From positions 1-42,701 of the forward strand of contig JAEOTA010000009.1 of assembly GCA_016840085.1 (NCBI GenBank): 42,701 bases of DNA. Direction: 5' to 3'. The notes beneath the pieces are model-generated. The model saw only the letters and a list, made by a program, of their open reading frames with translations, was not told the DNA's origin and ran no database searches. Shown here piece after piece: positions 11,240 through 15,568 of the stretch. The stretch is from Promethearchaeota archaeon. GTDB taxonomy: Archaea > Asgardarchaeota > Lokiarchaeia > Sigyniarchaeales > SOKP01. A program made the position numbers and the translations under genes. The first letter of the stretch is position 1. Each line of letters starts with the position of its first letter.

Positions 11240-12562
11240 ATGGCAGTAAAAGTAGCATTCTGGCAAAATTCTGATTGCTGGGGTTGCCATCAATCCTTAT
11301 TAAATGCACATTTAGGGTTGTTGCCAATACTTCCAGCGTTAGATATCGTCTATTGGCCAGCTGTGGTCGATTTTAAATTTGATTCATTGAAGAATAGAAA
11401 TAACGGTGAAATTTTAGTAGGCTTTATCGAAGGGACAATTCGTACAAAAGAAGATGAAGAAGGCGTCAAATTAATGAGACAAAAATGTGCACTAATTATA
11501 GCCTTTGGAAGCTGTGCTTGCTATGGAAATGTTCATGGTTTAGCTAATCAATGGAATAAAGATGATTTGGTCAAAAGGAAATTTTCTGAAGTTGAAAGCA
11601 TAGCAGATGGAAGTGGTGGTGAACCTTCTCAACATATGCCTGGTTTCTCTGAAAAAGTAGTGAATGTTGATGATATTATACCCGTTGATGCCTATATCGC
11701 AGGATGTCCTCCAAAACCAGAGCAAATAATTAGTGCTGTAGCTTTCTTATTAGGGCAAAAGCCATTTCCAATGAATGATTTAGCATTCTGTAATGACTGC
11801 ACTATAAAGGATAATTGCTTATTAGATGCTGGAAAGTTATGTTTTGGTTCAATTACCAGTATTGGTTGTAGTTTAAAATGCACAAGTCAAGGTAATCCTT
11901 GTGTAGGATGTTTTGGACCAGCAAAAACAGTAGATTCTAGAGCGGATAAGTTAAACGATATGACAAAGAATCTCGAAACCCTAAGATCTGGAAACAAGAA
12001 AAATTTATACGAATTTTTATCATTATTCTTGAATGTCCCATTAATGGCAGGATTTGATCTTGCGGGAGATATTCTGAAACAGGTTAAAAAGACAGGAAGT
12101 CAAAAAACTCCATTAGCAAACCTTCCTCCTGATACAGAACAAATTGCTAATAATATTATGCGATACTTAAGGGATCATCGAGAGTTTCATGAAGTTTCAA
12201 ATGTATGTGATACGTGCGATAGAATTATTGGAAGCAAATCTACTATGATAAGAGTCAAGAGAGATTATGAAGGTCTTCCTAACTTAGAGGATTGTTTAAT
12301 AGAGCAAGGTTATATCTGTATGGGCCCTATTACCAGAGCTGGTTGTGGTGGTTTATGCATTAAGGTAAATGCTCCATGTACAGGATGTTATGGTCACACC
12401 AAATGGGGTGTCGACCAAGCAGAACGATTTGCTGATGAAGTAACAAAAGGCTTTAATGTAAATATTTCAAAAGAAGAATTACTTGGACAAGTAAAAGATC
12501 ATATTGGAACTTTTGAAAAATTTACTTTAGCTTCAAATCGAACATATAAAGGAGGGGTATAG
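11240..12562 (+). CDS. vhuG: F420-non-reducing [NiFe] hydrogenase small subunit (VhuG/MvhG) with a duplicated C-terminal Fe-S module
   Basis: CWGC, AFGSCACYG, IAGCPP, and two copies of a CxxC...CL..G.LC.G.IT..GC...C.....PC.GC[FY]G module. Confidence 0.9.
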   Translation: MAVKVAFWQNSDCWGCHQSLLNAHLGLLPILPALDIVYWPAVVDFKFDSLKNRNNGEILVGFIEGTIRTKEDEEGVKLMRQKCALIIAFGSCACYGNVHGLANQWNKDDLVKRKFSEVESIADGSGGEPSQHMPGFSEKVVNVDDIIPVDAYIAGCPPKPEQIISAVAFLLGQKPFPMNDLAFCNDCTIKDNCLLDAGKLCFGSITSIGCSLKCTSQGNPCVGCFGPAKTVDSRADKLNDMTKNLETLRSGNKKNLYEFLSLFLNVPLMAGFDLAGDILKQVKKTGSQKTPLANLPPDTEQIANNIMRYLRDHREFHEVSNVCDTCDRIIGSKSTMIRVKRDYEGLPNLEDCLIEQGYICMGPITRAGCGGLCIKVNAPCTGCYGHTKWGVDQAERFADEVTKGFNVNISKEELLGQVKDHIGTFEKFTLASNRTYKGGV

Positions 12563-12566
12563 AAAA

Positions 12567-13871
12567 ATGGTTAAAGAAATAGAAGTAGAACCTATTACTC
12601 GATTAGAAGGGCATGGAGGATTGAGGCTTGTTTTAGGTGATGATGGAAAAGTTCAAGATGTTCAATTTAATATTACTTCTACAAGATTTTTTGAGAAATT
12701 TGTAGAAGGCAGATATTGTGAACATATTCCTCGTATTACACCACGGATTTGTGGTATTTGTCCGATACCTCATCATCTAACACCCACAAAAGCTGTTGAA
12801 GATGCGTGGGGCGTTGAAATTCCTCCTGCTGCATATAAGTTGCGACAACTATTACAAAACGCAAAACAATATTCTTCACATCTATTACATTTTTATGCAT
12901 TAGCAGCGCCAGATTTCTTGTTAGGCCCTTTTGCAGATCCCGCATTAAGAAACGTAGTACATGTAATTAATAAAATGCCTGATGTCGGAGCAATGGCTCT
13001 TAAAATGATGGATTTTGGCCAAAAACTATGTGCAGCAATAGGAGGTAAGTCAGTTCATCCTATCAGCGCAATAGTAGGAGGTATGAAAAAACCTCTAGAT
13101 GAAGATGTCCGTGATAAATTTTTAAAAGAGATTGATGACCAAATTGAATTTACTAAAAAAACAGTTGATATCGGATTAAAAGTAGTAGAAGATTATTGGG
13201 ATGTCGTTGCAAATGTAGGAGTAGTTCCTACGTACTATGTTGGTATGACTAAAAATGGCGTTCATGATATTTATGATGGGGATATTCGTATAGTAACCCC
13301 TGATGGAAAAAAGATAGATTATACTCCTCAAAAGTATTTGGATGCTTTAGGAGAACATATTCCAGAACATTCATACGCAACTCATATGTATTATAAGCCC
13401 GCAGGATATCCAGAAGGGATATATCGAGCAAATACATTGGCAATGATCAATGCTGCAGATAAAATGGCAACACCATTGGCGGATGAGGCTTTAAAAGCCT
13501 TTAGAGCCAAAATAGGACCAATTTCACATCATACATTTGCATATCATTGGGCTAGATTAATTGAAACAGTTGAATCAATTGAAGTTATCGCAACATTACT
13601 TAAAGACCCTGATATTGTAAATCCAGATTGTAAAACTTTGGATGTAGAACCAAGAGAGGGTGATGGTGTTGGTATTACAGAAGCACCGAGAGGATTATTG
13701 CTCTACCATATCTGGTCAGATGCAGAAGGAATCTGTAAAAAAGCTAATCTCTTAGTCGCAACAAATCATAATATCGCAGGTATTGAAAAGTCTTTGATGC
13801 ATGTTGCAAAACAAGTATTTGAAGATAAGGCATTAGATGGTCTAAAATTACCAGACCCTTGGATCAAATAA
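12567..13871 (+). CDS. vhuA: F420-non-reducing hydrogenase large subunit, split type lacking the C-terminal Ni-binding motif
   Basis: EPITRLEGHG, RFFEKFVEGR, L1 motif RICGICP, EAPRGLL. Ends LPDPWIK without DPCxxCxxH. Confidence 0.93.
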   Translation: MVKEIEVEPITRLEGHGGLRLVLGDDGKVQDVQFNITSTRFFEKFVEGRYCEHIPRITPRICGICPIPHHLTPTKAVEDAWGVEIPPAAYKLRQLLQNAKQYSSHLLHFYALAAPDFLLGPFADPALRNVVHVINKMPDVGAMALKMMDFGQKLCAAIGGKSVHPISAIVGGMKKPLDEDVRDKFLKEIDDQIEFTKKTVDIGLKVVEDYWDVVANVGVVPTYYVGMTKNGVHDIYDGDIRIVTPDGKKIDYTPQKYLDALGEHIPEHSYATHMYYKPAGYPEGIYRANTLAMINAADKMATPLADEALKAFRAKIGPISHHTFAYHWARLIETVESIEVIATLLKDPDIVNPDCKTLDVEPREGDGVGITEAPRGLLLYHIWSDAEGICKKANLLVATNHNIAGIEKSLMHVAKQVFEDKALDGLKLPDPWIK

Positions 13872-13906
13872 ATATATTGAAATTAAAGGAAAAAGTGAAT
13901 AAAAAA

Positions 13907-14056
13907 ATGAGTGATGTACCTGAAGGTGTGGTAAATCTCTTAGAAATGGTAGTTCGCTGTTTTGATTGCTGACTATCGTGTGCTGCCCACATCACAGTAG
14001 TTGATGAGGAAGGCACTGAGATTTACTCTCGAAAATTGAACGTAGGCTTAGGTTGA
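13907..14056 (+). CDS. vhuU: Selenoprotein VhuU, the separately encoded C-terminal peptide of the large subunit; Sec at TGA 13970-13972
   Basis: MSDVPEGVVNLLEMVVRCFDC-U-LSCAAH-ITVVDEEGTEIYSRKLNVGLG*. The TGA sits at the first Cys position of the L2 motif that vhuA lacks, and a SECIS-like hairpin follows. Confidence 0.93.
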
Positions 14057-14112
14057 TTGTTCAATAAAAATATTAGATTGAACATGACTGCCCACGCAAG
14101 GGTTAAAGCCTA
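14043..14112 (+). promoter_or_regulatory. Eukaryote-like SECIS element of vhuU
   Basis: Helix I TAGGCTT(14043-49)/AAGCCTA(14106-12). Core TGAT(14054-57)/TGAC(14085-88) gives tandem G.A/A.G pairs. Helix II TGTTCAAT(14058-65)/ATTGAACA(14077-84) with apical loop starting AAAAA. Confidence 0.8.
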
Positions 14113-14163
14113 TAAATTTAAAAAACAAAGATGAAAAAATACAAAAAAAAGGAGAAATGAGAA

Positions 14164-14670
14164 ATGGAAATAAATTTTGAGTTTAGAAAACTGGTAATGG
14201 ACCATCATATTGAGCCTGATTTAATAAAATATTGTTATCAATGCAGTCGATGTGCCGATAATTGTCCTGTAACAGCAGTAACAGAGGATTTCTATGGTAC
14301 GACAGGATATAATCCTAGAACAAACATTCTTAGGGCTCTTTTAGGGTATAAAAATTTACTTCTTGAACAAGATGATTTGGTAATATGGGGTTGTACTGTA
14401 TGTGATACATGTGATGAAGTGTGCCCTCAGAATATTGAGCTTACAGAGATCTTTACATTCTTGAAAAATCAAAGTATTGATTTAGGGAAGGGTCCAGATT
14501 TCATTTATTCGCAAGCACAAGCGGTTTTCGACAGTGCTAAAGCAATTCCTTCACAACCGGCAATTGAAAGAAGGAGAGATCAGCTAGGTTTACCAAAAGT
14601 AGTAGCACCAGATGTAGAGGAAATACAAACATTACTAAAAAATATTGGAGCAAATAAAAAATTAAAATAA
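14164..14670 (+). CDS. hdrC: Heterodisulfide reductase subunit C
   Basis: Two ferredoxin motifs, CYQCSRCADNCP and WGCTVCDTCDEVCP; directly upstream of hdrB. Confidence 0.92.
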   Translation: MEINFEFRKLVMDHHIEPDLIKYCYQCSRCADNCPVTAVTEDFYGTTGYNPRTNILRALLGYKNLLLEQDDLVIWGCTVCDTCDEVCPQNIELTEIFTFLKNQSIDLGKGPDFIYSQAQAVFDSAKAIPSQPAIERRRDQLGLPKVVAPDVEEIQTLLKNIGANKKLK

Positions 14671-14689
14671 TTCGAGGGTAAGATAAAAA

Positions 14690-15568
14690 ATGACCGAATA
14701 TAAAATGTTTGAAGGATGTACAATTGGTAATAGAATTCCCTTTATTGAAGCTGCTTCAAGAAAAGTATTTGATAAACTTGGTGTAGAAACATCTGAAGCA
14801 CCATTTTCATGTTGTCCAGATCCAACTGGGGTAAAAAGTTTTGATAATGATGCTTGGTTAGTAATTGGAGCTCGAAATCTTTGTCTAGCTGAAGCAGAGG
14901 GGAAGAATATTGTATCTTTATGTAATGGTTGTGCTAATACTTTAAGAGGCGTGAAACATCAATTAGAGCATAATAACTTGATAAAAGAAAAGGTTAATTC
15001 AGAGCTGGCAAAAATCGGAAAGGAATTTAAAGGTTCTATAGATGTGAAACATTTTGTTGATGTACTAAAAGATGAAGTGGGTATGGATAAGATCAAAGGG
15101 GCTATTACTAAACCATTAAATAGTATAAAAGTAGCTTGTCATCCAGGATGCCATTACATGCGTCCAGCAGAATGGATGGAATCTGATGATCCTATGAGAC
15201 CTGAAAATCTAAAAAAACTGGTTGCTGCAACTGGTGCTACAGTTGTTGATTATGATGAATTAGCTCTTTGTTGTGGCTCAGCTGTCACAAACGCTTATGA
15301 AGAATATGGTTTGGCAAATTTAAAGAAGAAGATGGATAGTATTAAAAAAACTGGTGCGGATGTTATTGTTGTAAATTGTCCTTCATGTTTCCAGCAATTT
15401 GATACTATGCAACGTGACCTAGGTAAGAAATTCGATACTGAATATGGCATACCAGTGTTATATTTAACAGAGTTGTATGCTTTAGCTATGGGATTTAATC
15501 CTGATGAATTAGGATTAAAGTTCCACAGAGTTCGATTATCAGGAATTCTAGAAAAGCTTGGAATATAG
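14690..15568 (+). CDS. hdrB: Heterodisulfide reductase subunit B
   Basis: Two CCG domains: FEGC..SCCPDP..LCNGC and HPGCH..CCGS..CPSCFQQFD; C-terminal GLKFHRV. Confidence 0.95.
   Translation: MTEYKMFEGCTIGNRIPFIEAASRKVFDKLGVETSEAPFSCCPDPTGVKSFDNDAWLVIGARNLCLAEAEGKNIVSLCNGCANTLRGVKHQLEHNNLIKEKVNSELAKIGKEFKGSIDVKHFVDVLKDEVGMDKIKGAITKPLNSIKVACHPGCHYMRPAEWMESDDPMRPENLKKLVAATGATVVDYDELALCCGSAVTNAYEEYGLANLKKKMDSIKKTGADVIVVNCPSCFQQFDTMQRDLGKKFDTEYGIPVLYLTELYALAMGFNPDELGLKFHRVRLSGILEKLGI

Follow-up and report, generated by a model that had tools for sequence, protein, structure and literature searches.

The closest described counterparts of the element studied here are the lokiSECIS of Lokiarchaeota VhuU.1 (Mariotti 2016, PMC4989117) and the Asgard type I SECIS (Huang 2024, PMC11227280). 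The first of these studies reported that the vhuU stop codon overlaps the SECIS core and stated the rule that recoding fails where a UGA lies too near its SECIS; the second called such overlaps frequent, described a lower stem, and noted no conserved nucleotides around the core. The use of a stop codon as SECIS core, together with most of the inference drawn from it, has been known since 2016, and what we add on this point is that the overlap is widespread in Asgard vhuU, probably ancestral there, and dispensable. The published Asgard models cover only the core, the upper stem, and the loop, and neither a side hairpin beside the core nor a closing pair is mentioned in the texts of the two papers, figures apart. 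We find that the Asgard SECIS has three arms, an architecture that refines the published model. If the working element includes this conserved third arm with its sequence-conserved loop, then the RNA used so far in binding assays, in heterologous tests, and by SECIS search programs is incomplete, and the architecture bears on how archaea recognize a SECIS without SBP2.

The window, by which we mean the whole stretch of 42,701 nucleotides that was analyzed, is one contig (C41) of a 4.68-Mb draft genome whose nearest relatives are Promethearchaeota (Loki-type Asgard archaea). It carries on one strand the operon vhuG-vhuA-vhuU-hdrC-hdrB (11240–15568; table 1). The product of the 49-codon ORF in this operon has no Pfam family; it matches the C-terminal metal-binding stretch of MvhA/VhuA, which are [NiFe] hydrogenase large subunits, and also the 27-aa subunit of the solved F420-non-reducing hydrogenase (9sfi chain M). 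Because the metal-binding stretch is matched there and is missing from the VhuA encoded upstream, we identify the ORF as vhuU. The Sec position reads TGA in 152 orthologous loci and TGT in 4, and vhuU carries Sec in place of a metal-binding Cys. The metal-binding motif (13964–13972) is D-C-U rather than the usual D-P-C/U, so that a Cys adjoins the Sec; in other Asgard lineages this residue is P, N, or F. The gene run contains neither hdrA nor vhuD, whereas contigs C9 and C44 harbor two hdrA-vhuD pairs that include Sec codons. There is also a second gene order, in which vhuU follows an hdrB-like gene and not vhuA; it occurs in the close relatives L026, L043, L044, L049, L055, L074, L096, L101–L103, and L109.

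Table 1. Features of the vhuU operon and of the SECIS at the vhuU 3' end, in window coordinates.
Feature	Position	Strand	Remarks
vhuG	11240..12562	+	hydrogenase small subunit; stop TAG
vhuA	12567..13871	+	hydrogenase large subunit without C-terminal motif; stop TAA (13869–13871)
vhuU	13907..14056	+	49 aa; ATG at 13907, in-frame TGA at 13970–13972, TGA stop at 14054–14056; Sec-bearing C-terminal piece of split [NiFeSe] hydrogenase large subunit
Sec codon UGA	13970..13972	+	codon 22; motif D-C-U-L-S-C-A-A-H
SRE-like coding-region hairpin	13980..14016	+	starts 7 nt past the Sec codon
C-terminal extension past His28	13991..14053	+	codons 29–49; end carries the SECIS 5' strand
Lower helix, 5' strand	14043..14049	+	codons Val46–Leu48
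Kink-turn 5' side	14051..14057	+	closing G14051, 3-nt bulge 14052–14054, G14055-A14056; UGA 14054–14056 is the stop
Upper helix (8 bp) with its A-rich apical loop (11 nt, last bases AG)	14058..14084	+	
Kink-turn 3' side UGAC	14085..14088	+	C14088 pairs with G14051
Side hairpin (third arm)	14090..14103	+	4 bp; loop with YGC
Lower helix, 3' strand	14106..14112	+	3' UTR
hdrC and hdrB	14164..15568	+	3' of vhuU, same strand

The reading that prompted this work, a eukaryote-like SECIS whose core UGA is the vhuU stop codon, is borne out, and the element belongs to Asgard type I. The elements listed in the earlier note, namely a UGAU/UGAC core (14054–57 and 14085–88), an 8-bp upper helix, an A-rich loop, and a 7-bp lower helix, are all present in sequence and fold. 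Its other details need adjustment: the tandem G.A pairs fit the sequence, but RNAfold pairs those bases otherwise, so that they are inferred from sequence only; the lower helix, which it placed in coding sequence, lies there with its 5' strand but has its 3' strand in the 3' UTR; and the distance of about 82 nt between Sec codon and core is 84 nt from start to start, with 81 nt between. The upper helix (14058–65/14077–84) together with a U.U pair corresponds to the 9-bp stem of Mariotti, and the apical loop (14066–76, 11 nt) has five leading A and AG at its end. The likeness to the lokiSECIS and to Asgard type I extends to the gene, the use of its stop as the core UGA, the 9-position stem, the loop length with its leading A run and final AG, the GA past the stem, and a lower stem with UGG/CCA-type pairs. 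The strict lokiSECIS description of 2016 always has AUGA before the stem, whereas the sequence here is UUGA, which occurs in 10 of 152 orthologous elements, against 137 with AUGA; its remaining features are all found (9-bp stem, 11-nt loop, five A, last base G after A, then GA/AA). Since the element is an ortholog of the VhuU.1 element with one changed base, we file it under the 2024 definition. The type I core, 5'-GA...[G/A]A-3', is present as G14055-A14056 and G14086-A14087; the stem, defined as 7–15 bp with at most two mismatches, has 8 bp plus the U.U pair; the loop, defined as 8–20 nt without ministem, has 11 nt; and the element stands at the 3' end of a selenoprotein gene, with SelB and SelD representing the Sec machinery in the genome (tRNA-Sec was not found in the draft).

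The fold as a whole is more stable than expected from shuffled sequences (z -2.9; 1 of 200 shuffles equally good), as is the upper helix with its loop alone (z -3.7), and all three arms have pair probabilities of 0.8–1.0 in a 301-nt context; the side hairpin by itself is not significant (z -1.4). The closing pair G14051-C14088 completes a standard kink-turn with a 3-nt bulge, and its position holds a standard pair in 151 of the 152 elements (G-C in 140, C-G in 9, U-G in 1, U-A in 1). A2b is present in 150/152 elements and an A.A combination occupies the second sheared pair in 39/152, whereas A1n was required by the element parser, so that its conservation is no independent test. A strict pattern search of the 4.68-Mb genome gave five matches, all behind UGA-containing ORFs; with the pattern fixed at 9/11/9, indels of 1–2 nt caused roughly half of the true elements to be missed. 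A covariance model built from the 72 close relatives detected no significant second SECIS in the window (next E 0.27), and in the same window there was no Rfam match at the gathering threshold and promoter and terminator scans stayed at shuffle level. Some orthologs have a damaged core: AUGC in L114 and L117, where the upper stem and side hairpin are kept, and likewise L131, whose layout is also unusual.

With the eukaryotic type I SECIS the element shares the UGA/GA tandem G.A core, the unpaired A run in the loop, and a predicted action from downstream. It differs in its shorter upper helix, in the third arm that stands in place of a plain internal loop, in its coding overlap, and in the lack of an SBP2 among the L7Ae-family proteins found and of an Rfam match; the canonical eukaryotic arrangement of two helices with a plain internal loop, matched by Rfam, is replaced here by a three-way junction. 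The predicted fold also lacks the unpaired GAA/A bulge between stems of the methanococcal eaSECIS.

Compensatory changes in orthologs, which the earlier note had called for, are present in the lower as well as the upper helix. Among 72 close vhuU orthologs aligned without reference to structure, 96.7% of the cells pair and 9 of the 19 pairs show two-sided changes. The distant Asgard set, which was aligned to the model and thus leans towards it, shows such changes in 17 of 19 pairs, and in both sets the covariation exceeds that of all 500 shuffles and all slid controls. Two-sided changes affect 7 of the 8 upper-helix pairs in close kin and all 8 in distant kin. The compensatory changes of the lower helix fall at 14044 and 14047 (in 19 and 31 of the 72 sequences), which are synonymous third positions of Val46 and Gly47. 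Four Cys-vhuU loci, one of them from the same genus, give no match to the covariance model, and three of the four end in TAA. The presence of the SECIS thus appears to track Sec in vhuU.

The side hairpin (GCCC-ACGCAA-GGGT), which the earlier note described as forming a three-way junction, is real: the covarying lower helix encloses it, and each of the seven SECIS elements that we found in this genome (those of vhuU, two hdrA-vhuD, two selD, and two unnamed ORFs) has such a hairpin, with differing stem sequences. It is not a peculiarity of vhuU and is common to Asgard SECIS elements generally. Nearly all vhuU elements have it 0–5 nt past the 3' core, overlapping the stop or not, and most of the 23 background matches in the genome have no stable hairpin at this position. 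The 110 distinct side-hairpin segments have a mean z of -1.7 against shuffles, with a slight bias from 11 segments that were picked by folding, and in 105 of the 110 a G precedes C or U within the loop or at its closing bases. Within vhuU the stem is conserved and weakly covarying, with no two-sided changes in close kin and such changes in two of four pairs in the distant set; the other genes of the genome, with their differing stems, support it more strongly. On our preferred reading the side hairpin serves Asgard SECIS elements at large as a structural or binding arm and has no relation to the overlap.

The stop codon is the core UGA in 130 of the 152 Sec-vhuU loci and in 9 of 11 families; these overlap labels were assigned partly by eye, and L001–L080 were joined to the family of the window by similarity. 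The earlier note's expectation that the stop is always a TGA at the core holds only in part: in 21 of the 152 loci, from at least five lineages, the stop is separate and the SECIS is kept, the stops being 15 TAA, 5 TAG, and 1 TGA. The four close kin that lost the overlap all have an insertion of 2 nt, which puts a TAG 5 nt ahead of the core; four other families have the SECIS 9–34 nt past the stop. The losses are counted as at least five, and the ancestry is parsimonious only, because the VhuA+VhuU tree is unrooted, resolves close kin poorly, and covers only loci where vhuA is adjacent. On this reading the overlap is probably the ancestral state in Asgard vhuU, and the stop/core overlap is widespread but dispensable: as the SECIS persists in 21 loci whose stop lies elsewhere, the two UGAs can be distinguished without exact overlap. 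The one remaining locus, L097, has a premature TAA 39 nt past the Sec codon, in the tail that is probably cleaved, with an intact SECIS; this TAA is either a sequencing error or a tolerated truncation.

The gene directly upstream of a Sec-vhuU ends in TGA at only 1 of 145 loci (L147); at the Cys-vhuU locus L180 the upstream gene also ends in TGA. In the GC-rich Thor-like family TGA ends 1 of 33 upstream genes versus 15 of 31 neighboring genes, although kin are not independent and these stop-codon statistics are overstated. Avoidance of this kind would be expected if distant upstream UGAs were at risk and a close one were not, and it fits a SECIS that can reach distant upstream UGAs of its transcript but leaves the near one alone.

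On contig C32 the genome encodes an archaeal-type SelB of 472 aa with the archaeal domain III and no Pfam match to the mRNA-binding winged helices of bacterial SelB, and two selD genes, each with an in-frame TGA. Neither ARAGORN nor RF01852 found tRNA-Sec in the draft, where ARAGORN at default settings gave only 8 tRNAs and at a lowered threshold only noise. The L7Ae family is represented by two short proteins on contigs C69 and C4 (124- and 129-aa frames), which are L7Ae- and eL30-like, and SBP2 is absent among the L7Ae-family proteins found. That the Asgard vhuU SECIS directs Sec insertion is predicted, the one and indirect sign of it being its absence from the four Cys-vhuU loci.

We consider it likely that the SECIS recodes UGA 22 and is unwound at UGA 50, such that the overlap is an extreme case of the published distance rule. 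When a ribosome stands at Sec codon 22, the SECIS, which starts 70 nt ahead, would be folded; the size of the ribosome footprint puts an element at this distance outside the ribosome. The folded SECIS would then recruit the archaeal SelB/Sec-tRNA complex through a putative adaptor. As the ribosome moves on, it would unwind the lower helix and the core, and at codon 50, with the core UGA in the A site, the SECIS could not fold as a matter of geometry and the UGA would be read as stop, in keeping with the rule that a UGA too near its SECIS is not recoded. The earlier idea that a ribosome reaching this UGA must melt the SECIS is thus logically true but calls for no dedicated switch beyond that rule. 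The overlap would cost the protein little, as the codons involved specify a tail that is probably lost by cleavage: the residues past His28 are probably removed by the maturation protease, which is encoded in this genome, and mature VhuU of M. voltae has 26 aa (published). It would persist because UAA or UAG in place of the stop would destroy the core, so that only an insertion can separate the two roles. Against this account, the overlap has lasted through 9 families, which is longer than one would readily ascribe to chance alone, and a Loki vhuU SECIS was inactive in M. maripaludis (published), which also separates the element from the methanococcal system. The failure to find tRNA-Sec in the draft and the weak covariation of the side hairpin within vhuU count against it as well.

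That long retention, which in 9 of 11 families concerns one and the same codon, could instead mean that the overlap is a selected device, in which melting separates the stop-UGA from the Sec-UGA and may throttle Sec insertion by a ribosome 28 codons behind. Where stop and core have separated, 20 of 21 stops are TAA or TAG, as such a device would have it; the single TGA among 21 is weak evidence, however, because TGA makes up only 13.5% of the stops in this genome and the cases are not independent. Moreover, at least five lineages manage without the overlap, conservation of the TGA follows from its double constraint alone, and TGA stops do occur near a separate core, 20 nt before it in L137 and 4 nt before it in the vhuD of this genome (contig C44). 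We regard selection for such a device as rather unlikely. It strikes us as barely credible that the core UGA now and then serves as a second Sec codon and yields a longer VhuU: the frame does stay open for 25 more codons in the window, but among orthologs it runs for 2–99 codons, for 3 codons in 30 of them, and is unconserved, and the SECIS must be unfolded at the very moment of decoding. Read-through of the core UGA was rejected on the same lack of conservation, and since the downstream frames vary so widely in length, we take this UGA to be the true stop.

Other alternatives concern which RNA does the work. The side hairpin is GC-rich, folds insignificantly by itself, and shows few compensatory changes within vhuU, as might a separate element (a terminator, a nuclease block, or a device coupling translation to hdrC) or mere conserved sequence. 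Its enclosure by the covarying lower helix, its constant place 0–5 nt past the 3' core in 7/7 genome SECIS despite differing stems, and the fact that it moves with the SECIS away from the stop make this improbable, nor did the terminator scan call it. The hairpin directly past the Sec codon (13980–14016) raises another question, as it is strong, partly conserved, and placed, 7 nt past the Sec UGA, where a bacterial SECIS would be. Its folding energy is -16.1 kcal/mol, compared with -7.8 for synonymous recodings (p 0.001), none of 76 control stretches from the operon folds as strongly, and it is conserved in three families; two Cys copies lack it and one other Cys copy folds strongly. We nevertheless think it very unlikely that this hairpin is the true, bacterial-style SECIS and the 3' element secondary, given that several families with the 3' element show it weakly or not at all, that the 3' element is common to all selenoprotein genes found, and that SelB has the archaeal domain III in place of a recognizable winged-helix match. 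In position the hairpin resembles the SRE (Sec redefinition element) of eukaryotic SELENON, a stem-loop within coding sequence that follows the Sec UGA after a few bases; it is not universal among Asgard vhuU.

Returning to the preferred reading of the side hairpin as an arm of the SECIS, its secondary structure resembles that of a k-junction, a kink-turn with a third helix on the non-bulged strand (Wang 2014, PMC4005666; Li 2023, PMC10573300). The bulge here lies on the 5' strand and the side hairpin on the 3' strand, and A.A is tolerated at the second sheared pair (in the 39 of 152 elements given above; 21.5% in TPP riboswitches, published), whereas the branch here lies one or two pairs beyond the bulge. 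The k-junction type is further marked by conserved A1n and A2b with tandem G.A/A.G or A.A pairs, by cross-strand hydrogen bonds, by coaxial C and T helices, and by folding that ions induce and L7Ae does not. Two k-junctions put to the test were not folded by L7Ae (published), which would bear on what stands in for SBP2. It is conceivable, and we put it forward tentatively, that the Asgard SECIS is a k-junction and not a plain kink-turn hairpin, that its third arm blocks binding of the L7Ae/SBP2 type as in known k-junctions, and that the YGC loop is the docking site of a putative adaptor replacing SBP2. On this view the eukaryotic SECIS would descend from such an element that shed its arm as SBP2 appeared, and in vhuU the element would work together with the SRE-like hairpin, each terminating ribosome briefly switching the SECIS off. 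If true, this proposal predicts that L7Ae does not bind.

Several further loci carry elements of this kind. In L126 (1914–1993) the vhuU 3' end and its SECIS recur some 290 nt past the first copy with no vhuU ORF before them, as an orphan duplicate. The two selD genes lie in tandem (L176 and L177; contig C78:5990–8158), each with a Sec TGA and a separate type II SECIS that has the side hairpin. On contig C82 (L195:1257–1493) there is a 78-aa ORF with a single membrane helix, one in-frame TGA, no Pfam family, and a three-armed SECIS behind it, which makes it a candidate selenoprotein. Contig C19 (L198:716–1189) holds a frame of 157 codons with Cys-TGA-TGA and a three-armed SECIS 11 nt past its TAA, a candidate tandem-Sec protein.
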